In this document: positions 5,828 to 56,619 of the stretch, piece by piece
Position numbering within the stretch: position 1 is the stretch's first letter
How the letters are laid out: every line of letters begins with the position of its first letter
From: an uncultured virus (IMG/VR IMGVR_UViG_3300020469_003958)
Taxonomy: Duplodnaviria > Heunggongvirae > Uroviricota > Caudoviricetes
IMG/VR virus record: IMGVR_UViG_3300020469_003958
Length of the DNA stretch: 64,000 bases
Reading direction: 5' to 3' (one strand)
Made by a program: the position numbers and the translations under genes
The notes under the pieces: generated by a model
Told to the model about the DNA's origin: nothing
The model's database searches: none
The model's input: the letters and a program-made list of their open reading frames with translations, nothing else

Positions 5828-5885
5828 CTGATATAGTACTATTTCCTTTGTACTATATAAATATAGAATTTATTACTTTTACCAA

Positions 5886-6290: not shown

Positions 6291-6340
6291 ATGACTATAA
6301 ATTAATTAATTTGTTTTGAATTCGTATATAAATATATAAA

Positions 6341-7096
6341 TTATAAGTTTTCGTAATCTATTGTTGTAACACCTCTCTTTTGTACTACTTGTGCTGAACA
6401 ACGATTTCCGAACTGTATTGATTTTGGAATATCATCAGTATCTAATAACATTTTAACAAACCCTGCTACAAATGTATCACCAGCTCCTGAGATATCCATT
6501 ATCTCTACTTTTTCGGTTGGATATGATATACCTTTGTACATACATCCATCCTTATCTAATGTAATTATTAGCTTTTCTAAAATCCAATCGTTTTTTTCAA
6601 TAAATTCTTTATTATTTTCAAACTCTGAACGATTTAGTTTTATGAATCGTAAATCCTTACACCAATTACCCAATTGCTTCTTTGTATCACAAATTACATT
6701 TGGATGTTTGAATCCGATATATGCTATATCTTCTTCGGTTAGGAATCCCTTATTGTAATCAGAAACTACAATCATTTGGTATTCCCAATAATCTATATCG
6801 GTAAGTAGTTTGTTACCTATCCTATCGATATTTTTTTCTTCATCAATTCTTAATAATAAAGTGTTTGATGATTCGTGAATATGTCTTGTCTTTGTAATGG
6901 GAGATTTTTGATGATGAAAATCCACATCAATACTCAATGATGTTAAGTTAGCTAATACATTCATTCCCATTCCACCATTGAAAACTTCTCTTTTTGGAAT
7001 AAATACAGGAGCAGGTCCTTCGGGTGAAAGACGGGGTGTATCTCCATAAATGAAGATATCATCACATTGTTCTCCTATTAATAAAACTTTACTCAT
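6341..7096 (-). CDS. rfaE1: Heptose-7-phosphate kinase (HldE/RfaE domain I, PfkB family)
   Basis: RLSPEGPAPV, GGMGMNV, KTR, LLRID, SDYNKG, DISGAGDTF. Confidence 0.85.
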   Translation of the reverse strand: MSKVLLIGEQCDDIFIYGDTPRLSPEGPAPVFIPKREVFNGGMGMNVLANLTSLSIDVDFHHQKSPITKTRHIHESSNTLLLRIDEEKNIDRIGNKLLTDIDYWEYQMIVVSDYNKGFLTEEDIAYIGFKHPNVICDTKKQLGNWCKDLRFIKLNRSEFENNKEFIEKNDWILEKLIITLDKDGCMYKGISYPTEKVEIMDISGAGDTFVAGFVKMLLDTDDIPKSIQFGNRCSAQVVQKRGVTTIDYENL

Positions 7097-7472
7097 CTAA
7101 TAATCCAGTTGTTGAGAATCCTTCTACTTTAGGGAAGTATTCTATTTTCTTAGCATGTTTTCTACCAATAATACCTTTCGTTTTGTATTCTTCTCCAATT
7201 ACAAAAATATCTGGTTGGTATTCTTTTATAGCATCAGATAATTCTTTATCGGTATCAAATACCACAATACCATTAACTCCATTAATTTGAAGTAGATTAT
7301 ATATTCTTTGTTTTTCATTATGAAAAGGTCTATTATCTCCCTTTGATTCTTTTACTCTTCTATCAGAATCAATTCCTATCATTAATTTTTCTCCCAATGA
7401 TTTTGCATGTGCAATTAATTGAAAGTGTCCGTGATGAAGAACATCGAAACAACCATTAATCCAAATCTTCAT
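7089..7472 (-). CDS. rfaE2: Heptose-1-phosphate nucleotidyltransferase (HldE/RfaE domain II)
   Basis: NGCFDVLHHGH, GIDSDRRVKESKGDNRP, C-terminal STT. Confidence 0.85.
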   Translation of the reverse strand: MKIWINGCFDVLHHGHFQLIAHAKSLGEKLMIGIDSDRRVKESKGDNRPFHNEKQRIYNLLQINGVNGIVVFDTDKELSDAIKEYQPDIFVIGEEYKTKGIIGRKHAKKIEYFPKVEGFSTTGLLDE

Positions 7473-8618
7473 TTATAAAAACTTTTTTAATTCACTTATT
7501 ACCATATCTGAAGTAATCTCCTTAGTACACTCAAATTGTCTGTTAGTACCCTTATGGTCAGGACACCAATCCCAATCACCAGCATCTAATCCTAATCGGT
7601 TAAAACATCCACTACACTTTCCTTTAGGTGAACCGATTCTTACACAATCTTTCATTTCTGCCCAAAGCTCTGAGAATCCACTAATCAAAACTGTCTTTGT
7701 TCCTAACGCCCAACTTAACCAACTCAATCCACTACCAATACCAATGAATGCTTTTGATTTAGCCATTTCATCCATAACTGATTCTAATGGTCCTTCTGGG
7801 TGTTTTATTATTCCCTTTGGGTGTGTGTTACCCATATAGTTATCACCCTCTTTTGAAAGTAATTTAACTTTATAGCCTTTATCATTTAACCAATCTACTA
7901 CATCCTGCCAACCAGTTGGGTTGTTCCAATATTTTGGTTGAGCAGTTCCATGTATTGCTATTGTGATTAGTTTATCATCTTTCTCAACATTTCTATCTTT
8001 TAACTTTGGTTTTATTTCTTTATATTCCAATCCTAATATGTCAGTTGCCATTTTTTGCATAGTAACTTCTTTTGGGTCTGTTGGATTTTTAAAGTAATCA
8101 ATACTACCATCATTATAAAATAATCCCAAATTGTACATAGCATATAAATTAGGAACAACATCACCTGGCTTCACAAACTCAATATTAGGATATTGTTTTT
8201 TTAACATATCATTATGAAATGTAGATGTAACTATTTTACAATTATGTTGTTTACCAAACTCCTCAACATATGGAAACCATGCCAATGTATCTCCCAATGC
8301 TTTTGAATCTAGTGCAATATAAACTCGCTTATTAGTTGCATTATAATTTTTTTCAACTACAAGTTTATCGTTTTGCCAAACTCTAATTGTCCAATCTACG
8401 AAATATCTAATATTAGATTTAGCCCAATGATTTGTTTTTAGTTCAGTTTCATAATGTATAAAATTTGTTTTTTTATCTATAAATTCAACTCTATATGTTA
8501 AATTCTCTGAACCTAATATTTCAACACATGCACCATTTACATAATCTACTTTTACATAATCTTTTATTTCAACTATGTTATTATTATTTCTTTTTATATT
8601 ATCGTAAATCATTTCCAA
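7473..8618 (-). CDS. Autotransporter-type protein O-heptosyltransferase (TibC/Aah, BAHT family)
   Basis: ALGDTLAWFPY, QPKYWNNPTGW, FIGIGSGLSWLSWA, four-Cys finger CSGCFN..WCPDHKGT.RQFEC. Confidence 0.88.
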   Translation of the reverse strand: MEMIYDNIKRNNNNIVEIKDYVKVDYVNGACVEILGSENLTYRVEFIDKKTNFIHYETELKTNHWAKSNIRYFVDWTIRVWQNDKLVVEKNYNATNKRVYIALDSKALGDTLAWFPYVEEFGKQHNCKIVTSTFHNDMLKKQYPNIEFVKPGDVVPNLYAMYNLGLFYNDGSIDYFKNPTDPKEVTMQKMATDILGLEYKEIKPKLKDRNVEKDDKLITIAIHGTAQPKYWNNPTGWQDVVDWLNDKGYKVKLLSKEGDNYMGNTHPKGIIKHPEGPLESVMDEMAKSKAFIGIGSGLSWLSWALGTKTVLISGFSELWAEMKDCVRIGSPKGKCSGCFNRLGLDAGDWDWCPDHKGTNRQFECTKEITSDMVISELKKFL

Positions 8619-10792
8619 CTTTTATTTGTATTATCTAATAATGATAATCCTTCAGCTTGTTTTGAAAAAGGATAGTTTGTTGTGTATCTTAATCTTTTGT
8701 GATGATAGAATACATGATTGTACCATAAATCAGCTACATCCCATTCACAATCTTCAATCCTATCCATATACCATTGTTTATCTCTATTTGGTATTAAATA
8801 AGCATGAGCCCAATCTTGATTGTAATCAGTTTTTCTAAATGTTTCATCAACTTCCCATCTAGTCCAAGATGGATTATCTCCAAAACTAATAAATGGAACA
8901 TCATCTTTTTCTGAGATAAAACATGCTTTGTTAACTACATCTACAAAATCTATTAGATTAGAATAAATAAACGCATCTGCCTCAAATATCAAAGTATAAT
9001 CGTAATTATCGGTATCTATTTCTTTTAATGCATTTATATGAGCTAAATAACAACCATAATGTCTGCCTGTAATGTTTCCTATACCTTGCTCACCTTTATA
9101 GATTGGAGTATCGGATATATCATCAGGTCTCCTACAAAACTCTGAAGGTGGTGTTCCATTATACACTTCATTAACCATAGGTTTGTAATCAAATCCCCAA
9201 CGTTGAAGTTGTTTTAGTGATTTCTCACTAATTCTCTCTCTAATATCACTTGGGTTTGTCATCATATGGATAATTTGAATACGAGGTCTTTTTCTATACC
9301 AAACCCAACCCTCTTTTGTTTCTACTTGTCCATAAAAATATTCATCAACTGCTTTAGTTAATCCCTCAAACAAATTAGTTCCAAAATCATCTCCACCAAT
9401 TATACCACCTGGTTTAACTTTATAAAACCAATTGTTTATATCATTTTTAACATCATCATATTCATGTCCAGCATCAACCATTATGAAATCTTGTGAATTG
9501 TTTAGGAAAAGATTTTTAGCATTATCTGATGTATCCTTTATTATTTGTATATCATCGAAGTTATTTGATATAATTGAATTATTAGAAAACTCAGTATATA
9601 AATCATTATCAAATGGTTTTAACATTGTTCTATGTAATAAGTTATCATATCCAACCGAACCCTTAAATGTATCAATAGCAGTAAATCTTACATTCTTATT
9701 TGTTTCTTTTAGTTTAGTTGCAAAATAGTTAGTTGATTTTCCCATCCAAGAACCAAGCTCTATTACGTTTGAATTATTTGGTAATTTTTCAATTACTTCA
9801 TCATATAATTTTTGATAAGAGAACCAACCAGGAATTTCATTGAACTCTGGTTGTAAGGTTTCTAATAATAAATTTTTTGTTTTATGAATATCATCATCGA
9901 TATAAGTTACCAAATCAGTATTATCATATGTATCTAAAAATGTATGTAATCTTCTAAATATAGATGGTAAGCCGTATGAAAGGGCTTCTTTGATTGAAAG
10001 TGGATTAAGTTCTAATGTTGAACTAAAGTAAAATAAATCAGATGCTTTATAGAATTTATCAGTATCATTTCGTTCACCCCATACAACACAATTTTTAGGT
10101 TTGAAATCCATAAGTGGTTTCCAATAATCTTCAAAATTAATTGCTTGATTTCCTACAAAGTGAAATTTAATTTTATACTTCTCTAATAATCTAGCTACAT
10201 CAAATATTTCACTTTGGTTTTTACCAACTGAAAATAAACCAACCATAAGAACATGTTTCCAATCTTTTTCAAAACCTAGTTCTTCTTTGGCTTTATCTTT
10301 ATCATATTTAAAATCTTCAATAGGATATTGCCAAACTTTAGTATCTATTCCCAAATGTTCGAATCTTTGTCTACTCCACTCTGATACTAAAATGTATCTA
10401 TCTGGATGATATTTAATTTTATCCGGATTTGTAAAAGAACCATGTGTTGAACAAACTATATCAAACTTTCTCTTTTTGTTTCCAAAAATTTTATCTAATG
10501 TTGAATGGTCTATGAAATGTTCTGGTATTTCAGTAAAATGAATAATATCGGGCTTTATATCATCTATAAGCTTTATAAATGAATTTCCTTTATCTTCATA
10601 TAAAGTATGAAGAGTTACTAAATCACCGATTTGATTTTTTTGAACTACAAATACACCACCACTATGGTCATTGTATTCTACAACTTGAATATCAAACTCA
10701 TTATTAAAAGTTTGTATTTGTTTAAGAAGATATTGTGGCATTCCACCCGTTGAAAGATGAGATGCTACATAAAGTAGTTTTTTCTTTACCAT
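8609..10792 (-). CDS. Fusion: GT4-like glycosyltransferase + class I SAM methyltransferase + GT25-like domain
   Basis: HLSTGGMPQ..KNQ..ELNPLSIKEAL (GT-B); IELGSWMGKS..VDAGHEY..KPGGIIGGDD (MTase); GCYLAH..LIFEADA (GT25-like). Confidence 0.8.
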   Translation of the reverse strand: MVKKKLLYVASHLSTGGMPQYLLKQIQTFNNEFDIQVVEYNDHSGGVFVVQKNQIGDLVTLHTLYEDKGNSFIKLIDDIKPDIIHFTEIPEHFIDHSTLDKIFGNKKRKFDIVCSTHGSFTNPDKIKYHPDRYILVSEWSRQRFEHLGIDTKVWQYPIEDFKYDKDKAKEELGFEKDWKHVLMVGLFSVGKNQSEIFDVARLLEKYKIKFHFVGNQAINFEDYWKPLMDFKPKNCVVWGERNDTDKFYKASDLFYFSSTLELNPLSIKEALSYGLPSIFRRLHTFLDTYDNTDLVTYIDDDIHKTKNLLLETLQPEFNEIPGWFSYQKLYDEVIEKLPNNSNVIELGSWMGKSTNYFATKLKETNKNVRFTAIDTFKGSVGYDNLLHRTMLKPFDNDLYTEFSNNSIISNNFDDIQIIKDTSDNAKNLFLNNSQDFIMVDAGHEYDDVKNDINNWFYKVKPGGIIGGDDFGTNLFEGLTKAVDEYFYGQVETKEGWVWYRKRPRIQIIHMMTNPSDIRERISEKSLKQLQRWGFDYKPMVNEVYNGTPPSEFCRRPDDISDTPIYKGEQGIGNITGRHYGCYLAHINALKEIDTDNYDYTLIFEADAFIYSNLIDFVDVVNKACFISEKDDVPFISFGDNPSWTRWEVDETFRKTDYNQDWAHAYLIPNRDKQWYMDRIEDCEWDVADLWYNHVFYHHKRLRYTTNYPFSKQAEGLSLLDNTNKSWK

Positions 10793-10826
10793 AACCTATT
10801 TAGATGCTTAGATGCACTTTACAATG

Positions 10827-10858
10827 TAAAGATACGAAAATAATTTTAATTATCCAAA
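10827..10858 (-). promoter_or_regulatory. Bacteroidota housekeeping-sigma-type promoter upstream of the glycosylation cassette
   Basis: TTTG-N20-TATCTTTA on - strand. Confidence 0.7.
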
Positions 10859-11137
10859 TTATTCTTCAACAGTTATCGTACCTTTATCTAGGTCAATCTG
10901 TCCATTCTTGTACTTTTTATCTAATTCTCCCAATTTTTCTTCTAATTCGTATATGTACTTATCATTCATTGCTCCGTACTTTTCCTCATTATCAGAAATC
11001 TCATTTAGTTTTTTATTGAGAGCTCTTTTCTGAACAGCCATTTGTCCTAAAAAGATTACAATCTTATCAGTTTCATCTCTAAGGAATTTTAATCTTTCTA
11101 AAATTTCCTTATCTAAGTTTTCTGTTTTTTGTGCCAT
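10859..11137 (-). CDS. Coiled-coil hypothetical protein, paralog of 5886..6290
   Basis: YKNGQIDLDKGTIT motif. Confidence 0.7.
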   Translation of the reverse strand: MAQKTENLDKEILERLKFLRDETDKIVIFLGQMAVQKRALNKKLNEISDNEEKYGAMNDKYIYELEEKLGELDKKYKNGQIDLDKGTITVEE

Positions 11138-11191
11138 TGTATTTCTTTGTTTATATATAAGTATATATAAGTTTTGTTTTACGAAAAATTA

Positions 11192-11458
11192 TTACCAATT
11201 TGGTGGTGTATCTAAAGATGATGTAGGCCAGTATGCTTTTAACTCATCAAGTGTTGAAAATGAATCTAAAGTAATGGTAGATGGAAAATTTCTTAAAGTA
11301 TTTTTTTGTAAAGTTATAGAATGTTGAGTATCCGTATCATACGTTTCTAATGCACGCATAAATTCTATATCCAATTGTTTGAATTTTCGTTCTCTATGTT
11401 CACGAAAAACTTTTAAAAAGTTTTCCAATGCTTTTGTTTTATCTAATGACCAACTCAT
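11192..11458 (-). CDS. Putative tail fibre assembly chaperone
   Basis: LDIEFMRALE..K..LR.FP..TLDELKAYWP pattern; downstream of giant fibre gene. Confidence 0.55.
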   Translation of the reverse strand: MSWSLDKTKALENFLKVFREHRERKFKQLDIEFMRALETYDTDTQHSITLQKNTLRNFPSTITLDSFSTLDELKAYWPTSSLDTPPNW

Positions 11459-11748
11459 AATGATGTATTTTCTGTTAAAAACTCATCCCAACTTTGAGTA
11501 AATGAATTTTGTAAACCAATACCATCATTGTTGGTGTAATCCCAAGCATAATTATCAAAATCAGGTGGGAATTGGGATTCTGATATTATTTGGTATCTAC
11601 AATTTTCAGAAACTGATTTTTTAGCACACCAATTAATTCTATTTCTATAAACATCATTTGATTCACTTACTTTTTGTTCGGTAATTGAACCAATTCCCGT
11701 ATCAGAAAGTGATTGTGAAGTTTCAAATATAAAATACAACTTATCCAT
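11455..11748 (-). CDS. Hypothetical tail-fibre-associated protein
   Basis: Directly follows fibre gene; 4-nt overlap with next gene. Confidence 0.55.
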   Translation of the reverse strand: MDKLYFIFETSQSLSDTGIGSITEQKVSESNDVYRNRINWCAKKSVSENCRYQIISESQFPPDFDNYAWDYTNNDGIGLQNSFTQSWDEFLTENTSL

Positions 11749-11765
11749 AATTTTTCTTTTAATTA

Positions 11766-14700
11766 TTAATCTGAGAATAAAACAAAATATACAATATTTG
11801 GGTCTCTATCCTGGTCTCCGTTATTATCTTTAACATTTATTTCAACATTAGAAGTTTTTACCTTTACACCAGTATTAAAAGAGAACTCATTATCTCCCAA
11901 ATTTGTTCCAGGTCCATTATCAGTACTACCATTTCTACCATATCCATTTGCAAATCCCAATCCACTTGATAAACTAAAACCAGTTGTACTAGTAAGTGTT
12001 ACCGTAAATTCTCCCTTTGATGCCCTAGTTACACTCGAAACATTATGGTCATTGTAAGGTCCTTCAATATTTCCAGATGTACTTACACCAAAATAACATG
12101 CTGCAACTAATTGCATTGTACCAATTGGAGTTCCATTTAATTCTCGCATCCACCCCTCTCTAAAATAGTTAGAGCTGGCACCTAAGTTCCATCCAGATGT
12201 ATCTCCATATGCAGCGTGAGGTGTAGGTTTAATATTACCAGCTATTGAAAGAGCCATTTTATCATTAGTGCTTGTACCACCTGATATTTGATTTCTTGAT
12301 TCTATTTTTATAGCACCATCAACTACTTCTACTAATTCAACTTCAGTTGCATCTTGGTCTCTTCTATGTAGTCTAGTGAATCTACCTGTACCAGATACTA
12401 CTTGTATTCCCGCAGGAAGTATTTCAATAAAATTATTATTTTTTTGAATACTAATAGTATCTTGGTATGGAACAACAGTACTTTTGCTTCCATTGTTTAA
12501 ATAACCCTTTGCACTGGTGTTATCTGAATCAAAGACAAAATTGGATACACCATAAGTTGTAGTTGTAGTTGCACTAGAATTAGCAGATACTGTTACACTT
12601 GTAGATGCTCTTGACCTAAGATTAATTCTAAATCTAACTTTATAATTACCAGTATTAGGTATTTCTACATCGAAATTGCTAGTACCTCCAGCTACAGTAC
12701 GAAGTCCTTGATTTGACTGACCATAACTGAAATTTTGCTGATTCCATGATAAAGAACCAAATACGTTGTGAGAAATAATATTATTTGAAATATAGTTTAC
12801 ATAGTTTGGTACAGTAAAAGTTATTACCTCTTCTTCTTTTTCAATTTTTCTAATATTAGTTATAGCAACTTTCTTTTTAGAATCACCATCCTTAACCCAC
12901 AATTTTAAATGATCTTGTGTCATTGGATTGCCAGCTAATTTATATTTATATAATTCTGATACTATTATTTGACCTGAATTTTTTTGATTACCAAACAACC
13001 AAAATTTATGAGAATCTGATACTTCAATTTCGTTACCATCAATAGTTACTTTATAAATTTCACTTACATTTGATTTTTTAATCTTAGATATTCTTGCCGA
13101 TACCCACTTATCAGTATCACTATCCCATGCTAAAATTTTATCATCTAAAGTAATATCTTTTGCTAACTTTGTATTACCATCTTCTAAAGTAATTTCAGTA
13201 GTACCAACTACGGAATTAATTCCCCCACCACCACTACTTGAGGCTTGCCAAAAATAGAATGCTTCGTTAGCTCCATATACATTTAAAGCGCTTAAATATT
13301 TGGTAGCTACTAATGTACTTGTATCATCATTCCATAATTCCAAATACTGATATATTGCTCTAGACCCATATGAATTTCCACCGAAAATTTGATTTCCACC
13401 ATGAACTTGGCCTTCAACTGATGGTGAATAATTTGGTGATGGTGAATTAAATTCTCCTTCAACAATACCAGTAGCATCTAAATGCAATGATGGATAATCA
13501 ATATCAGTAAGTAAAACTGGTCCTGCATCTAATGCCACATTGGCTGAGAAAATTGAATTTTGGTCCTCACTAGCATTTTCTAAAAAACCATATTGACTAG
13601 TAGTACTAATTCCAATCACATTTTTATAAAAATGCTGTGAGGTCGATTGTGCAAATGTAAATGTACCGCCACCAGCATCAGTCTCTGTAAATGCATCTTG
13701 GCTTCCAATTGTTACTCTTTCAGTATATTCAGGAACACCATCATATGCAAAACCATCATTATAGATATAGGTTCTATTACCCATACCAACGTGGTTTTCA
13801 CAATAGTACCAAAATTCCATTGAGGATGGGTCTCCAACTAATCCGTTACCACCAGCCCACGGAGATTCCATACTAGCAGATGGAATAATTTGAATATATG
13901 CACCAGCATTACCAGGATCAGCACTACTTGTTATAATTAAGAAAGGTTGCTGATATTCAGATGTAGTCAATGTTGTTGATTTATTGTATCTTCCACCATA
14001 TGTACCTATTCCATTTTCCCTCATTGAAAAACTAAATTCATGAGTATCCAATGATGAATCTGATAAATCAAAGTAGTATCCTCTATTTTGAACTGTACCA
14101 CCAGTACCAGTATCTCCATATGCACTTCTTTCCAAATAAATTACTGGTGCCTCTTCTGCACCATCACCATAATCTATATAAAATTTACTATTTTGAACTG
14201 TAACTGAGGATGTTGCTGGATAATCTAAACTTTGAGTAACAAGAGATGCACTATAAATTTGGATTTCCCCTACGTTAGGGTCAAATCGTATTTCACCATC
14301 ATCATCTTGCAAGATACCACCAGTTCCATCAATTGGGTTACCATTAGAATCTAACTCACGTGGTGTAATTACCCACTGTCCTATGTTACCATCATTAGCA
14401 TCTATTGTTCCTTTTATAAATGCATCAACTGCATTTACAATACCATCTTTAGTAACGGTGAAATTATATGAACGATTATCAACTTCAGTATATTGTGTAG
14501 TTAAATCATATCCTATTTGAAGACCGGGTCCTCTTATTATTGAATTTGAACCTGTACCTAACAGTGCTGCATTTGATAATGCAATTACACCATCATTATA
14601 TATCATAAAATCTGAACCACTTACCAGTGATAATACAGGCGCAGCTGAGCCACTTGGGTATCCTATGAAGATACCATCTTCTTCAAATGATTGAGTTGCC

Positions 14701-17700
14701 TGTCCAATTGAAATAAATGGAGAAGCACTACCATTTTCAGTATCAGCGTTAAGTGATATAACAGGTTTATTATTTTCACCCGTACCAACATTTATTGTTC
14801 TATTAGCATAAACATCTTCAGCAAAAAGGATATCAGTTGCAACTGAAGTAAATTGTGCTCCAAATATTGCGAATGCATCATCACCATCTAATTGTAATCC
14901 ACCACCACCATTCATAGGTACTAAGTTTGATGCAGCACCTAAAGAAGTCCAAAGAGAGCTTGCTTGTGGGTTTGTTGTTCTTGATTGTCCAGTTATTGAA
15001 CTATTAGCCACATAATATGTATTATCAGAACCATTTGTACCTACTGGGTTAAATATGATATCATTTATAGCATAATCTTGTGTGTTTGCAACCCAATCTC
15101 CTCTATGATAGTGTTCTATTTCCGTAGTATAAAACCTATCCCCGCTTCCATCATTATATTTAACTACATATTTTAAATCACCAGAAAGATATTCGGTTGG
15201 ATTATTATAAGTGTTATTTGTACCAACTTTCCAAGCCCCAGCATATACAATACCAGATGCATCCCCATCAGCACCATCTGTACCATCTTTTACTTTGGTT
15301 AAAGTTTGTGTTGTTGTTGCTGTAAACGCATCTCCTAAAAGTCTTATACCTGAAATATTATAAGTTATGGTAACTGTATCTTCATTGTTATCCATAGAAG
15401 TAAAATCAGCAACCGTTGCAGTAGTTGTACCACCACCACCAAAAGATGGTGTATTCATAGTAGATGCTGGACTTTGAGTAGCCGTAATTGTATATACACC
15501 TGTACCAGCTCCAATTGAGGATACTTTTGTTAGTGCAGTTACACCTTCAAATACTCGTATCTCCGTACCACTATTAGTATATGATGAAACCACACCAGCA
15601 GATGAAGCTGGTAATGAGTGTGCTTGGTTTGTATTAATTACAGTAATTCCATCAACACCATCTGCTCCATCAGATATAATATAGAATGTTTCGTTTATTG
15701 TGGTTGTTTGAGAAGTAGCAGGGTCAGTAAATACTGCAGTTACTACAACATCTTTAGTATCGGTATAATTTGTATCTCCAAGAGTCATTGAAGTACCATC
15801 CCCATCATCGGCTGTAATTGTAATTTGAGATGCACCCGTTGCAGTACCTATTTTCATTTGGTCTACTGTACCACTCCAATTTGGTGTTATTGTTACGTTC
15901 TTTGTATATTCAGTTCCAGACGTATCATAGAAAGATGCCTGAACAGTTAATGTAGTTGGAGTATAGATATTAGTTATCGAGTCTCTTGATGTTTTTAAGT
16001 TTGATGCGATAAATGAACCACCACCTAATCCATCGGTTACATCCAATAATGTTATTGAATCTAATACCTGTGGAGTTGGGGTACTGCCATCTTTTAGTAA
16101 AAGTGTTTTAGTTCCATTAATGAAGTCTTTGTCAATGGTTGGATTATAAACTACACCATTACCAGCATCAGTAACACCAGTTTGTACAGCAAGTAATGTA
16201 TTACCATCATAAATTCGTGCATCAGTACCAGATGTTATATTAGCTACTCCATTTAAATCTGCTTTTTGAACTTGTAGTGTAATATTACCACTACTATTTT
16301 TTATTTGAGTACCACCAGCAGTTGGAGTAATAAAGAAATTTGGCTCAGTATCCGAACCTGGTTTAACACCAAATATGTTAATTACATCACTAATTAGTTC
16401 GGTTTGGTCTTGTCCACTTAATCCACCATCAGCTACACCAACTCTAAATTGAAGAGGCATATCTGATATTGTTGTTCCACTTAAATCAATACTACTTACA
16501 ATATCATTGTTAGTATCAGAACCATCAGTAAATGTAGTTTCATCAGTAAAGTTAGTACCACCACCAGTAAATTTAAAATAAGGGTCTATGAAGTTAGATG
16601 ATGATGCAAATACGTTAATTGAAGATGGTGATGGATTGTTACCATTTTGGTCATATGCAATTACAAAAGTATTAGCTGATAATGAAACAGTCTTACCAGT
16701 TCCAGATGCAGCAGTCCAAGGACCTACTGCTGGAGGTCCATCGGTAGCATCACCACTTACATCAGATGTATGTGCTGAATTTGCTGTCCAACTTTGTCCG
16801 TTATAGATAACCAAATCATCAGCGGCATAAACTGTAGCAGTAGCCCATATACCTCTTAATGTTGGTTCTGTAGCACCAGCAGATGTTTGTCTTATGGAAC
16901 CTCTAATTGTTAAAGTTTCACCATCCCATTTTAATTGGTTATAACTTCCACCATTATTTGTACCCGTTAGTGAAAGTATCCCAGATGTACTATTGGTTCC
17001 AGCACCTGCTCCACCCATATCATTGGTTACTCCTAAGAATGCACCCGGCTGTCCGAATCCTTGAGTACCAGTTTGTCCAACCGCTATGTAAGGTTCATCC
17101 GTTCCACCAACAATTGCTATATTTGCGTTAACGTTTCCAGGAGGTGGTTCACCAACATTGATTGTATTTTTTACAAATGATTCTTCGAAGATTGCTAACT
17201 TAGCAGCAACGAAGAAATCTTGTTGACCTAAATATTGCCATCCCCCAGCATCAATATCACCTTCTTGAGTTGCAGGTGGTCCAGCAGAGTAAACAGGTTG
17301 AGCAGTATAAATACCATCATCATTACCCAATCCATCAGATTCTTCAGTATATTCTGATTTGTTTATTAATTCTTCAGTAGTTGCCCAATAGTGAACCTCA
17401 TCACTAATTTCTCTAAATACAGCATCTCTTCTTTTTTGAGTTAAATCGAATATATATGCTATTTCCTCATCCCATTCACCCCTCACAACAATACCAGGTC
17501 CAGTTGCTCCTTCAAAAACAGTTGAGAATGATTGTTGTACAAATTGTTCACCCCTACCATTTTCAAAATCAATTTTAAATACAATAAATCCTTGTGTATT
17601 TTGTTGAGGTGAATTCCAATTAGTTACAGCAGATGAACTAGCATATAATTCACCAGAAGAAGATACTATTTCTTTTGAATCTCTTAAAGTACCTTGTGTT

Positions 17701-20700
17701 AAAAATGATGATATCTCATGTATAGATGCTGAAAATTGTCCGAATGTACCTATTGGTAAAAATGTTACTGGGTCAACTGCTTGTTCATTATATTGTTCAA
17801 CATATTGTAATTCCGTTCCACCTTTGTATGCTCTGAGTAAAGTTCCAGCATTATCAAAATAAGTTGTACCATCAACTTCAACAGTTACTGAAGATGCTGG
17901 ATTTGATAATACTACTGAGTATGCAGCTGAACCTTCTGCTATACCAGATAGAGTTACACTATCAGTATCCACTATTGTTCCAGCAGAGTTACCATCTCTT
18001 AATTCAACTGTAAATGTTTTTGTTGAACCAGTAGCTGGTAAATCACCAACAGTTGCTGTATTATTTGTAGATGATGCCTGTACCGTAGAACCATCAACAT
18101 TTAAGAATTTAAAGAAAGCAGAACCAGTTACATTTATTGCGGTTGCTGATAATACAATATCACCCGAAGGTGCTACTTTAACACCATCACCATCATAAAT
18201 AACAGTATCACTACTAGCTACTAAACTAACCTTTCTTGCAGCAGTTCCATCATTTACTTTTGAAAATGTTTGTGTTTTTGAAACTATTCTCGGAACACCA
18301 GCTACACCAGCAGTCAATGAATAAGGATAAACCTTAAAGTTATATGTAATACTAGCAGATGGTTGGTTGTTTGCCAATCCACCAAATCCTTTAAAGTGTA
18401 ATACTTCTCCACCAGATGAAGATATACTACCAGATACACTTAAATCTCTAAATGAAGATGATAGTTCACTAAATTCTATGTTTGATGCTGATATGGATGC
18501 AGTTACGAATGTACCTGGTCTACCACCATCGTATTCATCATAGAAGAAGAACTCATCGTCTTGTTTTATAAATACTTCAGTTGTTGCGCTTGAATAATCA
18601 GAAACAAATCCTATTTCATCTGCATTTAATGCGTTAGCAATTGGGTCTAATGTTACTTCAATTGGACCACCACCATCTACTATCTTTGTAAACTTTTGTA
18701 TTTTACTTGCAGTTACTAATGATGCAGTAAAGTATGGAAATATATTAAAATCAAATTGTACACTTGCACTTAGTGCTGACATTGTTTCGAATCCAGACAA
18801 ACTCATTGTTGTTGTTGAATCACCAACTAAGGTTTCGAAAACTATATTAGTAGGTACAACCGATGTTGTTGTAAATGTACCAGGATTACCACTACCAGTA
18901 TTTATTAAAAATAAATCACCTTGTGTTATTTGTACATCGGTATCAGCTAATCCATAGTTGTAAACATCACCTTTATGATTTGAACCCAATGCTATTGGAT
19001 TTGGGTCTATATCAATAACAATAGAATCTTGACCAGGTAAACCATCAGGCGTAATAAAGAATGTTTTATTTGCAGTTACAGATGCTGAAGTAATTGGTTC
19101 AGTATATGTAAATTCAAAGTTTAATTGTTTTGTTTGAGTAGCAGTATAATATGGAACACTATCTCCAGGTACACCACTATCTATTGAATCACCAACAACA
19201 TTAGTAACAGCTACTGTTATTGTATCATCAAATGCACCAGTATCATAAAATACAAATAACTCAGGTAGTTCAGTTAAAGGTTGAATCGATGCCGATGGTT
19301 TTACAACCAAACTAGCAGTTAACGGATTCAACGTACTACCTCTTTGTTGGAATGATGATGTTACAATTATCTGAGTCGGGTCAAATGAGAATGCTTCTCT
19401 TGGTTTATACTTTATATTAAATTGGTCTGCGGTTGAGGTTACCAAACCAGGATTCAAACCATCTTTTAAATCAGTTAGAATTTCAGATGTTAAAATAGAT
19501 TCGGTTGTTGGTCCATCCATAAGATAAACTGTCAACTCATTATCAATTGCATCTCTATCAAAGATAGCATTATAATCAATTTCACCACTACCAGTTTCAC
19601 CAGCGGTTACACCTTCTAAGAAATCAGGATTTGTGATTGCTTGTGAAAGTGATACATATGTATTTACTTCAGTTAATCCATCTAATGAAGATGAAAGTAC
19701 ATGAAGTTTAGCTTCAGAAAAATCTTTTTCTAATCCACTTCTTAAATTTATACGATTTATACCATCAACCCTTACTGCTTGAATCTCTAATGTTTTTGAT
19801 TCTTTGTTTTTAATTTGTAATCCTCTAAATGGTACTATCTCAAAACTAACTCCACCTTTACCATCTTCAACTCTACTAATTATGAAGGTATCAGAAACAC
19901 CTTCTATGGCACCAGTATATCTAATAAATTGTACTGAGATATCATCTCTTGAACCTGTGAAATCTTCTACTCTCAAAAATGGTTCTCTACCACCATCTAC
20001 ATCCCAATTAGTTAAGTAACCAGGATAAATACCACCAACATATTGTGATGATGATAATAAGTTACCAAATGAATCAAACGCACCAGATGTATAAGTTATA
20101 GAACCAGTTACCAATGTAGTCTCAACATCAATTGCTATTGTTAGAGGTGGTACTGCGTTAGCTGGATTTGATGCTGAATCAAATGAGAAATATAAATTAT
20201 CAGGTGTAATTTCTATATCCTTTTCAAATAAGTTTGTGTTACCACCACTAAATGTTTTTGTATCTTCAACTCTAACAGGAATAAAATTATTATTGATATC
20301 ATAAAATTCAAATCGATAATCAAATGTTTCGGTTACTAAGAATTTTGGTACTTGTTGAACGAATGTAATTTCATCAGGCGAAAATGAAGTTTCTTGAGAT
20401 GCTTTTAAACTAACATTGTTTACATACCAATCACTACCACTTACTTCAAAGTATAATCGTGCAGAATCAAAAGTATCTGCTATAATATTTTCATTGATAT
20501 TTGTTTTTTGTAAAATACCATTTGATGAATTAATTGTTGTTATTGTTTGTGATGTTGGTGTACTACCATTAGAACCACTTAAAAATACTTTTAAATAATC
20601 ACCAGAAGTATTTTCTCCTTTTCTTACATTAAAATCTAAAGTATATTCTACACCATTCTGAATTGAAAAACTTTCAGTAGTAAAGAAAAAGTTATCAGGT

Positions 20701-21839
20701 GATGAATTTAATTTTGCTGAGTTATATAATACATCTTGATTAAATGTTACATTAAAATCATTTGATGATGTTACCCAATATTCATCTATTACTGGTTGTG
20801 TGAAGAATCCATAAGGTTCTTCTTTTTTAGCGAAGGTTGTTATATCTCTTAATACCTCATTTGATTCTAATTGTATTTCTTGCACAAATTCGAAATCAGT
20901 TAAGTTTGATTGAGACCTTCTAAATACTTTTACTCTTGCAGCATCACCTACAAAAGTTTTCATATCAGTAATACTAATCTTAGCAAATGAACCAGTTAGT
21001 GCAGTTGCTAAATCAGCTACATTTTCTATATATGGAAATTCTAATGAATAACTTTCATTTGTAAATGATGTTACAATATTGTTTTCCGCATATGGAGGAG
21101 ATACAATTATTTCATTTTCATTTACAATTTCTTTAATTTTTGGAGCATAATTAATATTATCAAATGTAATGATTTCCTCATCAATTGAACCTGTCCATTT
21201 ATTTCCACTCTTAATTTTTAATCTATAATTTGTAGGTAATGTAAAATTACTTAAATCAGTTCCTGCGTTTGGAACCAATGGAATACCATCTACTACTCCA
21301 GTTTGTGTTACTACTGGTGGATTACCACTAAAGATTGGTTTTACTATTTCATCTATGGTAACCTCAGGTCTACGATAGAATCTAACTTTATCTTCGTTAG
21401 CTAATAGTTTATTGATTTGAAAGGTTCTTTCCCACTTAACATTATAGGCACCTTTCCATTGATTTGGAACTTCTCGTTTTACACCATTATCATCATACTC
21501 CTTTAGTTCACCTAAAACAGTAATCTTACCCAATCCAATTGGAGTATCATTATAAATGTAAACAGCTATTAGTTTAGATATACCCTCATAGTATTCTGGA
21601 ATACCATTACCTGGTTCAAAATAGATTGGGTTTCCAGCAACATCTAAAAGTTCAATCTTTATTTCAGTTGATTCTTTTAGGTATTCTGAACCCTCTATTA
21701 AAAATCCATTCTTACCACCAGTAAATGTATCCTTAAATTCGGTTATTCTAAAGTAATCCGAATTTGGAGTTTCATCTTCTATGAATGTCTGAAATGATGA
21801 TAAGTTTTGTTCGGGTGAATATTTTTTTATTCTTGCCAT
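11766..21839 (-). CDS. Giant tail fibre/host-attachment protein (3357 aa) with Ig-like repeats, CBM-like repeats, cupredoxin-like module and Hint domain
   Basis: S/T/G-rich beta-type composition, repeated modules, RGxW..Y repeats, YYCENHVGMG, Hint ending SHN. Confidence 0.8.
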   Translation of the reverse strand: MARIKKYSPEQNLSSFQTFIEDETPNSDYFRITEFKDTFTGGKNGFLIEGSEYLKESTEIKIELLDVAGNPIYFEPGNGIPEYYEGISKLIAVYIYNDTPIGLGKITVLGELKEYDDNGVKREVPNQWKGAYNVKWERTFQINKLLANEDKVRFYRRPEVTIDEIVKPIFSGNPPVVTQTGVVDGIPLVPNAGTDLSNFTLPTNYRLKIKSGNKWTGSIDEEIITFDNINYAPKIKEIVNENEIIVSPPYAENNIVTSFTNESYSLEFPYIENVADLATALTGSFAKISITDMKTFVGDAARVKVFRRSQSNLTDFEFVQEIQLESNEVLRDITTFAKKEEPYGFFTQPVIDEYWVTSSNDFNVTFNQDVLYNSAKLNSSPDNFFFTTESFSIQNGVEYTLDFNVRKGENTSGDYLKVFLSGSNGSTPTSQTITTINSSNGILQKTNINENIIADTFDSARLYFEVSGSDWYVNNVSLKASQETSFSPDEITFVQQVPKFLVTETFDYRFEFYDINNNFIPVRVEDTKTFSGGNTNLFEKDIEITPDNLYFSFDSASNPANAVPPLTIAIDVETTLVTGSITYTSGAFDSFGNLLSSSQYVGGIYPGYLTNWDVDGGREPFLRVEDFTGSRDDISVQFIRYTGAIEGVSDTFIISRVEDGKGGVSFEIVPFRGLQIKNKESKTLEIQAVRVDGINRINLRSGLEKDFSEAKLHVLSSSLDGLTEVNTYVSLSQAITNPDFLEGVTAGETGSGEIDYNAIFDRDAIDNELTVYLMDGPTTESILTSEILTDLKDGLNPGLVTSTADQFNIKYKPREAFSFDPTQIIVTSSFQQRGSTLNPLTASLVVKPSASIQPLTELPELFVFYDTGAFDDTITVAVTNVVGDSIDSGVPGDSVPYYTATQTKQLNFEFTYTEPITSASVTANKTFFITPDGLPGQDSIVIDIDPNPIALGSNHKGDVYNYGLADTDVQITQGDLFLINTGSGNPGTFTTTSVVPTNIVFETLVGDSTTTMSLSGFETMSALSASVQFDFNIFPYFTASLVTASKIQKFTKIVDGGGPIEVTLDPIANALNADEIGFVSDYSSATTEVFIKQDDEFFFYDEYDGGRPGTFVTASISASNIEFSELSSSFRDLSVSGSISSSGGEVLHFKGFGGLANNQPSASITYNFKVYPYSLTAGVAGVPRIVSKTQTFSKVNDGTAARKVSLVASSDTVIYDGDGVKVAPSGDIVLSATAINVTGSAFFKFLNVDGSTVQASSTNNTATVGDLPATGSTKTFTVELRDGNSAGTIVDTDSVTLSGIAEGSAAYSVVLSNPASSVTVEVDGTTYFDNAGTLLRAYKGGTELQYVEQYNEQAVDPVTFLPIGTFGQFSASIHEISSFLTQGTLRDSKEIVSSSGELYASSSAVTNWNSPQQNTQGFIVFKIDFENGRGEQFVQQSFSTVFEGATGPGIVVRGEWDEEIAYIFDLTQKRRDAVFREISDEVHYWATTEELINKSEYTEESDGLGNDDGIYTAQPVYSAGPPATQEGDIDAGGWQYLGQQDFFVAAKLAIFEESFVKNTINVGEPPPGNVNANIAIVGGTDEPYIAVGQTGTQGFGQPGAFLGVTNDMGGAGAGTNSTSGILSLTGTNNGGSYNQLKWDGETLTIRGSIRQTSAGATEPTLRGIWATATVYAADDLVIYNGQSWTANSAHTSDVSGDATDGPPAVGPWTAASGTGKTVSLSANTFVIAYDQNGNNPSPSSINVFASSSNFIDPYFKFTGGGTNFTDETTFTDGSDTNNDIVSSIDLSGTTISDMPLQFRVGVADGGLSGQDQTELISDVINIFGVKPGSDTEPNFFITPTAGGTQIKNSSGNITLQVQKADLNGVANITSGTDARIYDGNTLLAVQTGVTDAGNGVVYNPTIDKDFINGTKTLLLKDGSTPTPQVLDSITLLDVTDGLGGGSFIASNLKTSRDSITNIYTPTTLTVQASFYDTSGTEYTKNVTITPNWSGTVDQMKIGTATGASQITITADDGDGTSMTLGDTNYTDTKDVVVTAVFTDPATSQTTTINETFYIISDGADGVDGITVINTNQAHSLPASSAGVVSSYTNSGTEIRVFEGVTALTKVSSIGAGTGVYTITATQSPASTMNTPSFGGGGTTTATVADFTSMDNNEDTVTITYNISGIRLLGDAFTATTTQTLTKVKDGTDGADGDASGIVYAGAWKVGTNNTYNNPTEYLSGDLKYVVKYNDGSGDRFYTTEIEHYHRGDWVANTQDYAINDIIFNPVGTNGSDNTYYVANSSITGQSRTTNPQASSLWTSLGAASNLVPMNGGGGLQLDGDDAFAIFGAQFTSVATDILFAEDVYANRTINVGTGENNKPVISLNADTENGSASPFISIGQATQSFEEDGIFIGYPSGSAAPVLSLVSGSDFMIYNDGVIALSNAALLGTGSNSIIRGPGLQIGYDLTTQYTEVDNRSYNFTVTKDGIVNAVDAFIKGTIDANDGNIGQWVITPRELDSNGNPIDGTGGILQDDDGEIRFDPNVGEIQIYSASLVTQSLDYPATSSVTVQNSKFYIDYGDGAEEAPVIYLERSAYGDTGTGGTVQNRGYYFDLSDSSLDTHEFSFSMRENGIGTYGGRYNKSTTLTTSEYQQPFLIITSSADPGNAGAYIQIIPSASMESPWAGGNGLVGDPSSMEFWYYCENHVGMGNRTYIYNDGFAYDGVPEYTERVTIGSQDAFTETDAGGGTFTFAQSTSQHFYKNVIGISTTSQYGFLENASEDQNSIFSANVALDAGPVLLTDIDYPSLHLDATGIVEGEFNSPSPNYSPSVEGQVHGGNQIFGGNSYGSRAIYQYLELWNDDTSTLVATKYLSALNVYGANEAFYFWQASSSGGGGINSVVGTTEITLEDGNTKLAKDITLDDKILAWDSDTDKWVSARISKIKKSNVSEIYKVTIDGNEIEVSDSHKFWLFGNQKNSGQIIVSELYKYKLAGNPMTQDHLKLWVKDGDSKKKVAITNIRKIEKEEEVITFTVPNYVNYISNNIISHNVFGSLSWNQQNFSYGQSNQGLRTVAGGTSNFDVEIPNTGNYKVRFRINLRSRASTSVTVSANSSATTTTTYGVSNFVFDSDNTSAKGYLNNGSKSTVVPYQDTISIQKNNNFIEILPAGIQVVSGTGRFTRLHRRDQDATEVELVEVVDGAIKIESRNQISGGTSTNDKMALSIAGNIKPTPHAAYGDTSGWNLGASSNYFREGWMRELNGTPIGTMQLVAACYFGVSTSGNIEGPYNDHNVSSVTRASKGEFTVTLTSTTGFSLSSGLGFANGYGRNGSTDNGPGTNLGDNEFSFNTGVKVKTSNVEINVKDNNGDQDRDPNIVYFVLFSD
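12765..13214 (-). other. Hint (intein-like) domain, residues 2876-3025 of the tail fibre
   Basis: Starts SVVGTTEITLEDG after a Gly linker; block B-like EVSDSHKF; ends NYISNNIISHN followed by Val; no endonuclease. Confidence 0.8.
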
Positions 21840-21864
21840 TAAGAAATAGTTCCGTTAATTCCAT

Positions 21865-21928: not shown

Positions 21929-21929
21929 A

Positions 21930-22097
21930 ATGAATAAAAAATATGCAATGTTACAAATTGATGCTGAAGTTCATCAATTATTAAAGTCCTTTTGTAGAGA
22001 TAAAGGATACAAAATGAATGGGTTAGTAGAATCTCTTATAAAAGAAAAAGTATCACCAAAACAAACTCAACCACAAAACATTTTAAGGTCTAGCTAA
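21930..22097 (+). CDS. Small ribbon-helix-helix-like DNA-binding protein (55 aa)
   Basis: Not in ORF track; MNKKYAMLQIDAEVHQLLKSFCRDKGYKMNGLVESLIKEK.. fits a strand-helix-G-helix pattern and fills an otherwise empty gap. Confidence 0.7.
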   Translation: MNKKYAMLQIDAEVHQLLKSFCRDKGYKMNGLVESLIKEKVSPKQTQPQNILRSS

Positions 22098-22920
22098 CCG
22101 CTCTACCTTTCATTTGTTCCCAATCTCTATTATTTCTAACCTTATCATTTGTTTGTTTGACTGCTTCTAAAACATTTGTAGTTGTTTTAAATCTATTTGC
22201 TAAATGAATTAGTGCAGATAAATCTTTTGGGAAACAATGCCCACCATAACCAAAATCACCATCGTGACCAGGAACCATCCAATGTGATTTTCCTAATCTT
22301 TCATCATAAGTTGCATATTCTACAACCTTATCATAATCTATATTTACCTTTTCACATAATTGATAAATTTCATTAGCAAATGATACTTTAGTTGAGAGGA
22401 ATGTATTAGTTAAATATTTTACCATCTCAGCGTGGGTTGAATCGGTTTTAATTATATCTGCTTTAGGAAATACTTTTGAAAAGATTCGTTTTAAAGTTGT
22501 TGTTGCTGGTCTTGGTCCACCCAATATAATTCTTTTTTGATTATTATAATCTTCAACTGCATTTCTTTCAGTTAAAAACTCTGGATTAAATACGACTTGT
22601 ATATGTTTAGGTGTTATCTTATTAAAAGATGCAACTGTTAATGGTGGTACTGTTGATTTGATTACAACCACCTTTCGTTGGTTTAAGTTAATTATTTTTC
22701 CTAAGATACTTGCTACAATTGAAATATCACATTCACCTGTTCCCATATGCATAGGTGTTGGTAAACAAAGGAATAGTACATTACAACTTAATACTTCTTC
22801 TTCGGTTGCTGTTGCTTTTGTTTCATCTAAATCATATGTTAATATTTGATAATATTTTTTAAACTTCTGATAAACTGCATTACCAACAAACCCTTGTCCT
22901 ATTATTCCTATTTTATTCAT
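22090..22920 (-). CDS. ugd: UDP-glucose/GDP-mannose dehydrogenase family protein (short form)
   Basis: GIIGQGFVG, CLPTP, IKSTVPP, NPEFL, AEMVKY..N, GYGGHCFPKD. Confidence 0.88.
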   Translation of the reverse strand: MNKIGIIGQGFVGNAVYQKFKKYYQILTYDLDETKATATEEEVLSCNVLFLCLPTPMHMGTGECDISIVASILGKIINLNQRKVVVIKSTVPPLTVASFNKITPKHIQVVFNPEFLTERNAVEDYNNQKRIILGGPRPATTTLKRIFSKVFPKADIIKTDSTHAEMVKYLTNTFLSTKVSFANEIYQLCEKVNIDYDKVVEYATYDERLGKSHWMVPGHDGDFGYGGHCFPKDLSALIHLANRFKTTTNVLEAVKQTNDKVRNNRDWEQMKGRAVS

Positions 22921-56603: not shown

Positions 56604-56619
56604 ATCACTCATTAGAGTA

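Follow-up and report, generated by a model that had tools for sequence, protein, structure and literature searches.

This work concerns four coupled genes at positions 6,341 to 10,792 of a 64,000-nucleotide stretch of DNA from an uncultured virus (IMG/VR record IMGVR_UViG_3300020469_003958), which we will call the window. An initial annotation of the same DNA read these genes as a cassette for protein O-heptosylation beside the tail fibre. The second of them encodes what is, by profile and by aligned residues, a bona fide member of the BAHT/TibC family of protein glycosyltransferases, and we lean towards the view that the cassette as a whole is a cytoplasmic O-glycosylation operon acting on the phage's own fibres.

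The window probably comes from a marine T4-like phage with a Bacteroidota host. Its G+C content is 30% and all of its long open reading frames (ORFs) lie on the minus strand. It encodes a T4-type large terminase, gp25-like and other baseplate wedge proteins, as well as a primase, an SbcCD-like nuclease, PhoH, Hsp20, a peptide deformylase and UvdE, and because terminase, baseplate wedge and replication-type genes are all present we regard it as part of a large tailed phage. The nearest relative, record G001, is a 102-kb viral contig that has 78% of sampled words in common with the window. Judged by identity of the terminase, the cultured phages nearest to it are Flavobacterium phage immuto (61%) and Microcystis phage Mel-JY01 (60%). 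DNA nearly identical to the operon (at least 97% of sampled words) occurs in 14 seawater, marine or viral-metagenome runs from 10 studies, which are possible sources of the window DNA itself; a megablast search of the operon against a deposited-phage collection gave no match.

The four-gene cassette

The genes are listed in the order in which they would be read.

8609..10792, minus strand: 727-aa three-domain enzyme (ORF, Pfam and AlphaFold2 model)
7473..8618, minus strand: 381-aa predicted BAHT/TibC-family protein O-glycosyl(heptosyl)transferase (TIGR04414, alignment with TibC 4rap)
7089..7472, minus strand: 127-aa HldC-like (rfaE domain II-like) sugar-1-phosphate nucleotidyltransferase (profiles, phrog_7878)
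6341..7096, minus strand: 251-aa HldA-like (rfaE domain I-like) PfkB-family sugar kinase (profiles, phrog_8133 over the full length)

The coupling claimed at the outset is borne out, as all four ORFs are found at these coordinates with no spacers between them. The TGA stop of the three-domain gene overlaps the ATG of the BAHT gene (ATGA), and the listed TTG start would give a 10-nt overlap. The BAHT stop abuts the next ATG (TAAATG), and 8 nt are shared by the last two genes. No segment resembling a membrane span is seen in any of the four proteins (the maximum 19-residue Kyte-Doolittle mean is 1.19), which fits cytoplasmic protein glycosylation of the TibC type and not envelope modification of the Gtr or Wzy type; a Pfam scan of the cassette proteins found no flippase, ligase or Gtr-type partner among them.

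RNA-library contigs from four metatranscriptome runs, at 95-99% identity, cover parts of the kinase, BAHT and glycosyltransferase genes and run across the promoter region, while none of these contigs lies on 11275-12500. We make no use of them as evidence because contigs cannot show transcription, strand or level, and carry-over of DNA is possible.

The BAHT/TibC-family transferase

TibC and Aah move heptose from ADP-heptose to Ser residues of autotransporter adhesins such as TibA and AIDA-I, and TibC is a dodecameric ring. The 381-aa protein matches the model of these enzymes, TIGR04414 hepto_Aah_TibC, with 294.1 bits (E 1.4e-87, cut-off 200) over residues 20-379. The model of lipopolysaccharide (LPS) heptosyltransferase I, TIGR02193, gives it 26.7 bits and WaaC-type models give at most 27. 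The N-terminal beta-barrel, PF21129 TibC_1st, scores 24.5 bits (E 2.8e-5, cut-off 27), and PHROGs holds no family for the protein. A grouping with the LPS enzymes WaaC/WaaF would have told against the initial annotation; the profile search of 7473..8618 that it proposed places the protein with BAHT/TibC instead, so that objection falls away.

The solved structure of TibC (4rap) matches the protein at E 2.3e-49, with Asp110 and all four Cys of the iron finger aligned. Passages of the TibC study (PMC4358343) name Asp110 as catalytic, Thr226, Lys230 and Trp305 as contacts to the beta-phosphate and sugar, and a finger in which four Cys hold iron; they also state that Arg286 hydrogen-bonds N1 of adenine, that its Ala mutant is inactive, and that BAHTs modify proteins, in the cytoplasm. 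The window enzyme keeps these residues as Asp110, Thr225, Lys229 and Trp300. Its Cys335, Cys338, Cys352 and Cys364 correspond by alignment to Cys339, Cys342, Cys358 and Cys370 of TibC, which upholds the claim of a TibC/Aah-like enzyme with an intact four-Cys finger; they are predicted to bind iron. Two residues are substituted: Arg286 of TibC is Val281 here, and Pro300 is Gly295.

These features are not peculiar to the window. We fetched 79 IMG/VR loci with their flanks, and the residue and neighbourhood counts given below for viral loci rest on them. Asp110, the equivalents of Lys230 and Trp305, and each of the four Cys are present in 79/79, and the Thr226 equivalent in 78/79. The Arg286 position is Val in 54 loci, Ala in 12, Thr in 8, Leu in 3, Ile in 1 and Arg in 1. 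Of 14 matches on bacterial contigs, 12 have Arg there, the exceptions being a phage-like contig in a metagenome-assembled genome (MAG) and a Methylomicrobium gene. Pro300, the stereoselectivity residue of TibC, is replaced by Gly in 43 of the viral loci and by Ser in 36.

The three-domain glycosyltransferase fusion

The 727-aa protein was originally described as a fusion of a GT4 glycosyltransferase, a methyltransferase and a GT25-like domain, and three domains are indeed found, although the third falls below its Pfam cut-off and is named with the help of its fold. The Pfam matches are Glycos_transf_1 (E 4.8e-10, 39.7 bits, cut-off 26.4), Methyltransf_24 (E 1.2e-16) and Glyco_transf_25 PF01755 (E 4.7e-4, 20.5 bits, cut-off 24). 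The limits are residues 2-317 for the GT4-type domain with its GT-B fold, 344-470 for the class I S-adenosylmethionine-dependent methyltransferase and about 500-727 for the GT-A, GT25-like domain. A phmmer search of the PDB with the whole protein found nothing below E 0.2. Its AlphaFold2 model has a pLDDT of 85.

In that model the first domain has a GT4 GT-B fold, closest to HepE (Z 24.5, root-mean-square deviation 3.2 over 296 residues). SdgB and GtfA, glycosyltransferases of Ser-repeat adhesins, are also among its fold neighbours (Z about 22). The C-terminal 228 residues, folded alone (pLDDT 89), have human COLGALT1, a GT25 enzyme, as top Foldseek match (E 1.7e-9), followed by Mimivirus R655, vaccinia H3 and PBCV-1 A64R. 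The ExD motif (E105/D107) is invariant in an alignment of homologues of this domain, and two homologues score above the PF01755 cut-off of 24 (L052 with 24.5 bits, L076 with 27.7). We consider the GT25-like label for this modelled domain reasonable and not proven, because by VIA Z COLGALT1 ties with GnT-I and R655 at 14.5-15.0.

The T4 alpha-glucosyltransferase is another fold neighbour of the first domain (Z 19.6), and this raises the idea that the cassette decorates modified bases in the phage's DNA with a glycan that contains heptose. There is a precedent of sorts, since part of a preprint describes phage clusters with a kinase-like enzyme, a cytidylyltransferase and a GT-B transferase that put heptose on 5-hydroxymethylcytosine (bioRxiv 10.1101/2023.12.21.572611). 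Those phages use a different type of transferase, however. The BAHT enzyme is a protein transferase with its acceptor-binding iron finger kept, the scanned window ORFs contain no match to a hydroxymethylase, a TET/JBP-type enzyme or a cytosine methyltransferase, and the cassette is linked to fibre genes rather than to genes of DNA metabolism. We regard sugar hypermodification of DNA as highly improbable.

The two probable heptose enzymes

The best family of the 127-aa protein is rfaE_dom_II, at 98.5 bits against a curated cut-off of 181.5, with a TagD-type model at 60.5 bits. It has the HxGH motif, as HHGH. Its C-terminus reads EGFSTT, without the Arg of (F/L)xxGRSTT, the hallmark of heptose nucleotidyltransferases that are promiscuous for the nucleoside triphosphate (NTP), STTR5 being an example (PMC11573728). 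The best family of the 251-aa kinase is rfaE_dom_I, at 111 bits against 345, over profile positions 98-310 only; its N-terminus is shorter than that of bacterial HldA. The GAGD and NxxE motifs are present, and the best solved relative is HldA 4e84 (E 6.9e-11). A heptose-1-P nucleotidyltransferase and a heptose-7-P kinase, as initially annotated, are thus favoured by best family and by motifs, but not by score.

The two other enzymes of the pathway, GmhA and GmhB, had been reported missing, and this is so: no match to either was found among the Pfam and NCBIfam hits of the scanned window ORFs, and none in G001 with E up to 1. Two stand-ins were considered, a cupin (51025-51423) and an NT5C-type HAD protein (56118-56630), and nothing supports either of them. 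The statement that the phage makes its own nucleoside diphosphate (NDP) heptose therefore holds for two of four steps; the GmhA and GmhB steps must come from the host or from a part of the genome outside our view. Supply of heptose phosphates by the host is plausible. A sample of 81 genomes from the class of a Bacteroidetes MAG (G007) has gmhA over the cut-off in 49 and rfaE_dom_II in 62. This MAG holds a contig of a distant BAHT phage, and its class is linked only indirectly to the host of the window phage.

Five larger records of BAHT phages, two of them rated complete, all lack rfaE_dom_II. One of the five has a gmhA-like gene, beside genes for a short-chain dehydrogenase/reductase (SDR) and a NeuB-like protein. 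This is locus L108 (G006:C1:62859-66314), from a distant BAHT phage, in which the GmhA-like isomerase (180 bits) lies between the SDR oxidoreductase and the NeuB-like sugar-acid synthase; the gene set suggests a pathway for a modified heptose or a nonulosonic acid.

The same gene in other phages and in bacteria

Homologues of the BAHT gene are rare in the deposited-phage collection, where 4 of 50,697 records have one (Mel-JY01 and three uncultured huge phages), and common in metagenomes. They are encoded by 164 of 173 candidate IMG/VR stretches, that is by at least 164 viral contigs, and a protein collection yields 3864 relatives at E <=0.001 among 5145 candidates.

In 48 of the 79 loci a homologue of the fusion lies directly upstream of the BAHT gene, and in 27 the HldC-like and HldA-like pair lies directly downstream. 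A sister clade (L028, L030-L035) keeps the BAHT gene and the fusion, and the two heptose genes are absent from it. In distant phages the BAHT domain is itself fused to GT4 and methyltransferase domains, in proteins of 693-1527 aa. A homologue of the giant gene beside the cassette (see below) is found upstream in 24/79 loci, which is every locus of the close and sister clades whose flank reaches it. If ORFs holding 10 or more Gly-X-Y triplets in a row are counted along with this homologue, one or the other stands within the fetched flank in 60 of the 79 loci; contig ends truncate many of the remaining 19. Thirteen distinct long collagen-like ORFs were found; 11 are proline-free, with nearly all triplets GSS, GTS, GST or GTN and up to 881 triplets, and the other 2 include GPT or GPQ.

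Pfam annotation of 109 ORFs from 8 representative loci shows which other genes recur. Tailoring functions are GT4, GT2 and GT25 glycosyltransferases, FkbM- and CmcI-type methyltransferases and 2-oxoglutarate-Fe(II) oxygenases. On the structural side there are proteins with collagen repeats, in one case together with an S74 fibre chaperone, fibre modules of the laminin-G and beta-helix kinds, and genes for tail sheath, tube, baseplate, terminase and portal. The BAHT gene thus travels with fibre and sugar-tailoring genes inside the structural modules of divergent phages, and this favours phage proteins over host LPS as acceptors. A bacterial locus (L088) has two BAHT genes and, right after them, the gene of an AIDA-repeat protein that is 2229 aa or longer, and the phage gene order, as far as predicted genes can tell, mirrors this bacterial arrangement of enzyme beside giant acceptor.

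A competing reading is remodelling of the host surface, in which LPS, a capsule or a surface adhesin of the host would be altered during infection, for example to block superinfection. The products of HldA and HldC do feed bacterial LPS cores, the promoter motif of the cassette is common to non-structural genes, and a published case counts against our own view: pelagimyophages carry rfaE, UDP-glucose dehydrogenase and glycosyltransferases in a tail-fibre 'host recognition cluster', which part of the paper on them reads as O-chain modification (PMC7029224). However, the transferase here is a BAHT and not WaaC/WaaF, and BAHTs are described in the passages cited above as modifying proteins in the cytoplasm (PMC4358343). 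The cassette proteins show no membrane-span-like segment and, in the Pfam scan, no flippase, ligase or Gtr-type partner, and the linkage to fibre genes persists across very different phages. We find host-surface remodelling improbable. The earlier choice of the phage's own virion proteins over host LPS is supported in part by the BAHT grouping, the lack of membrane spans and the linkage to fibres, and it is weakened in that the acceptor and ADP-heptose as donor are not secured.

The giant proteins as candidate acceptors

11766..21839, minus strand: 3357-aa Ser/Thr/Gly-rich giant protein, upstream of the cassette; candidate virion fibre and acceptor

Ser and Thr make up 20% of this protein. It has a CBM5/12 domain and a Hint/intein-like domain, and among its homologues the N-terminal half is conserved while the C-terminal part is mosaic. 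Composition, domains and this pattern of conservation fit a host-recognition fibre, and we take the protein as a candidate tail fibre. The first 900 residues match only unnamed viral clusters in the ESM Atlas.

The Hint-like domain deserves a remark of its own. It covers residues about 2870-3030 (listed at window positions 20370-21900), matches Pfam Intein_splicing at E 1.1e-6, below the cut-off, and is kept in many homologues (high-scoring pairs at about 2870-3025). It ends in SHN followed by Val, not by Cys, Ser or Thr, and may be an autoprocessing module like that of bacterial inteins rather than a true intein.

Relatives of the window have giants of a second kind. G001 (L101-L103, G001:C1:1-56000) has three consecutive giant ORFs of at least 3123, about 3585 and more than 5600 aa. 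Long (GSS/GTS)n tracts occur in two of them, the first and the second, with 131 and 332 triplets of the GSS/GTS type, and the three lie 44-55 kb from its BAHT gene, which by colinearity would be beyond the low-coordinate end of the window. G095 shows 33 collagen matches, which fall within frames of 3735 and 3560 aa, G096 shows one that the contig end cuts, and G097, whose contig is too short to reach that region, has none. We believe the acceptor is probably one or more of the giant Ser/Thr-rich proteins of the lineage; the adjoining 3357-aa protein is not established as an acceptor.

The two cultured relatives differ in this respect. Immuto shares its backbone with the window, but a BAHT gene is absent, as are a giant block between its nuclease and terminase regions and any collagen match. 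In Mel-JY01 a fused BAHT and 7 collagen matches are present. With n=2 this contrast is an anecdote. As a side observation, collagen-repeat matches in Mel-JY01 (L001, 1-2300) fall in a 1016-aa plus-strand frame where the annotation has two minus-strand hypothetical genes, and the strand may have been mis-called there.

The promoter-like elements

10828..10858, minus strand: promoter-like element TTTG-N20-TTCGTATCTTT, 35-65 nt upstream of the first cassette gene
6329..6340, minus strand: -7-like element TTTATATATTTA, directly after the kinase stop and before the next gene

A host-type promoter had been proposed at 10827-10858. A scan of 5700-12000 with the sigma-70 consensus is at chance level (38 sites, 40.7 expected) and lends the proposal nothing, so we judge the promoter by whether its motif recurs and is conserved. 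The composite motif TTTG-N20-TTCGTATCTTT has 4 matches in the window against 0.86 expected, and recurs at 52404-52434 and 60455-60485 before minus-strand genes. The -7-like half has 15 matches against 7.3 expected, and stands ahead of the gene for primase, two others and the one after the kinase gene. A TTTG...TAnnTTT motif is kept upstream of the homologous gene in 20/20 distinct relatives, whose proteins are 56-98% identical, and in several of them the -7 position reads TATATTTG. We take TATATTTG to be the Bacteroidota consensus TAnnTTTG at -7, and the element to be one of the Bacteroidota -33/-7 type.

We therefore accept a predicted promoter at 10828-10858 and a second one directly after the kinase gene. 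A scan of 5700-12000 for intrinsic terminators found none. The two promoter-like elements flank the cassette and so would delimit the four-gene unit, the TTTATATATTTA element at 6329-6340 likely marking its end.

The donor sugar

The loss of Arg286, an adenine contact, means that ADP-heptose as donor is not secure. The same protein-glycosylating machinery might use another NDP-heptose or another sugar, with the kinase and the nucleotidyltransferase making a donor specific to the phage. The distribution of the residue, missing from all but one of the 79 viral homologues and present in 12 of the 14 matches on bacterial contigs, is what one would look for in that case; both enzymes are under their family cut-offs; BAHT phages without any heptose gene exist; and CDP- and UDP-heptose exist without a known role (PMC11573728). 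Yet the best profile matches are still HldA and HldC, the contacts to beta-phosphate and sugar (Thr226, Lys230, Trp305) are kept, and the nucleotidyltransferase lacks the STTR5 hallmark of NTP promiscuity. Phages of the sister clade have the same Val without the two heptose genes, so a host donor suffices there. On balance a donor other than ADP-heptose seems to us unlikely, and the sugar itself is probably heptose in the clade of the window.

A bolder form of this idea is worth stating. The phage BAHT clade might use a non-ADP NDP-heptose (CDP-, UDP- or other), made by its own HldC-like enzyme and unused by the LPS pathway of the host, as a virus-private channel that primes a methylated oligosaccharide on Ser/Thr of micrometre-long fibres. 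We think this unlikely. If true, it would be the first physiological role of non-ADP heptose nucleotides and of heptose-biosynthetic enzymes in viruses.

A model of the cassette and its difficulties

In the reading that we prefer, glycosylation of the phage's own fibres, the HldA-like kinase and the HldC-like nucleotidyltransferase would boost two steps of NDP-heptose synthesis during infection, working on heptose phosphates derived from sedoheptulose-7-P by GmhA and GmhB of the host. Either ahead of assembly or in the course of it, the BAHT enzyme would attach heptose to hydroxyl groups of Ser (or Thr) in giant fibre proteins. The glycan would be lengthened by the GT4 and GT25-like domains and capped with O-methyl groups by the methyltransferase. 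The acceptors would be Ser/Thr-rich giants, both the adjoining 3357-aa protein and, by analogy with many other phages, the collagen-like giants with (Gly-Ser/Thr-Ser)n. What the phage gains may be a coat of glycan that makes long fibres more stable, shields them or tunes their adhesion, but this is speculation.

There are real difficulties with this model, and they should be considered together. The system is known here from genes, and a glycan on phage proteins is a prediction. On the side of the acceptor, neither Pfam nor NCBIfam finds an AIDA repeat or an autotransporter match in the 3357-aa giant or its neighbours. Nowhere in the giant do 4 or more Gly-X-Y triplets follow one another, and a search of the window in all frames found no stretch of 3 or more consecutive Gly-Ser/Thr-Ser/Thr/Asn/Ala/Asp triplets. 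PHROGs, NCBIfam and the ESM Atlas assign it no family, and since NCBIfam gives none, no target repeat of O-heptosylation is recognised in it. The repeat giants of the lineage are known from relatives only (G001, G095 and G096), where they lie 44-55 kb away, outside the window. The promoter motif is common to the primase and UvdE genes and not visibly to late structural genes. The location 'beside the tail fibre' stands as far as the giant gene upstream of the cassette goes, while the identity of that gene as a fibre is a matter of interpretation.

On the side of the donor, two of the four steps of the heptose pathway appear to be encoded by the phage, and the enzymes for these two score below curated cut-offs. 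The PDB neighbours of the nucleotidyltransferase are assorted cytidylyltransferases, including ethanolamine-phosphate and glycerol-3-phosphate types. The adenine-contacting Arg is nearly always lost in viral homologues, as noted. Two complete BAHT phage genomes have neither rfaE_dom_II nor gmhA, and heptose may therefore not be the sugar across the clade.

Virion glycosylation is textbook knowledge for eukaryotic viruses. To our knowledge it is established for only a few groups of phages. Full-text searches (TibC/O-heptosyltransferase in phages, Mel-JY01, collagen-like or glycosylated fibres of phages) turned up no publication on a BAHT from a phage. What appears to be new, judging by the genes, is that the scheme of a BAHT enzyme with a giant acceptor has moved into phages and has been joined to glycan-extending and methylating domains. 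If this is true, it would be a new and very widespread route of phage virion glycosylation, with effects on host binding by fibres, protease resistance and recognition. Heptose-biosynthetic enzymes have been found in viruses, where their role was called unsolved by the authors, and our model, if true, would give a concrete answer to why viruses carry them (PMC11573728).

Other features of the window

10859..11748, minus strand: three small conserved ORFs of 92, 88 and 97 aa between the giant gene and the cassette (phrog_20196 for the 88-aa ORF)
22090..22920, minus strand: 276-aa NDP-sugar dehydrogenase-like protein (TIGR03026, 201.6 bits, cut-off 189.8)

The dehydrogenase-like protein keeps the GxGxxG and catalytic-Cys motifs and is missing the C-terminal nucleotide-sugar-binding domain. 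It might supply the GT4 and GT25-like domains with a second donor sugar. The gap between its gene and that of the giant holds a 63-codon frame from stop to stop (21906-22097) on the plus strand, which is empty elsewhere; by eye this frame may resemble a small DNA-binding protein of the ribbon-helix-helix type.

Downstream of the cassette, a 1129-aa protein (2438-5827, minus strand) has an N-terminus weakly like nicotinamide mononucleotide (NMN) adenylyltransferases and a long remainder, with DUF5661 in one homologue. It is kept between the cassette and the terminase gene in 36/79 loci and is partly common to immuto and Mel-JY01. We considered it as a cytidylyltransferase-like part of the sugar pathway and rejected this, as its best matches are weak NMN adenylyltransferase models and part of it matches the backbone of immuto, which carries a NadR-type adenylyltransferase gene.

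The window also has a phage-borne two-component pair (47007-48682, minus strand), a PAS-domain histidine kinase of 410 aa and an adjoining response-regulator receiver protein of 148 aa.

Comparison with known systems

The closest likeness is to TibC-TibA and Aah-AIDA-I of E. coli (TIGR04414; PDB 4RAP/4RB4; PMC4358343). The phage enzyme is a true member of this family with the key residues kept, and in both cases a soluble enzyme is encoded near a giant Ser-rich secreted or structural protein. The phage version differs in coming from a lytic-type phage, in having no autotransporter or AIDA repeat nearby and in its Val and Gly for Arg286 and Pro300. It is also coupled, and elsewhere fused, to GT4, methyltransferase and GT25-like domains, which implies a longer, methylated glycan.

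The other two genes resemble the HldE or HldA plus HldC pathway, since the pair matches rfaE domains I and II best and keeps GAGD/NxxE and HxGH. Unlike their bacterial counterparts the phage enzymes are separate, shortened, below the cut-offs and in reverse order, with the nucleotidyltransferase first, and GmhA and GmhB were not found with them.

In PBCV-1, A064R has the multi-domain order glycosyltransferase, glycosyltransferase, methyltransferase. Glycosylation of the PBCV-1 chlorovirus capsid and of Mimivirus fibrils is comparable in that virus-encoded cytoplasmic proteins with several glycosyltransferase and methyltransferase domains serve the virus's own structural proteins, and PBCV-1 A64R and Mimivirus R655/R699 are fold neighbours of the third domain of the phage fusion. 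These are giant viruses of eukaryotes, however, with other families of priming glycosyltransferase and no BAHT.

Among phages, Freeman et al. reportedly described in 2023, under the title 'Virion glycosylation influences mycobacteriophage immune recognition', O-glycosylation of mycobacteriophage virions, where phage-encoded glycosyltransferases are said to modify the C-termini of capsid and tail-tube proteins. The enzyme families, hosts and targets are different from those of the window cassette. Phage serotype conversion of the Gtr type is further removed, as it relies on membrane-embedded transferases and a flippase acting on lipid-linked sugars, and neither such a Pfam family nor a membrane-span-like segment was found in the cassette.

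Collagen-like filaments of the BclA type in Bacillus are glycosylated with rhamnose and anthrose. Together with the SdgA/SdgB and GtfA adhesin systems they offer a parallel for the proposed acceptors, being long Ser/Thr repeat filaments that are O-glycosylated by soluble GT-B enzymes. They are bacterial systems, and their sugars are GlcNAc or rhamnose/anthrose rather than heptose.

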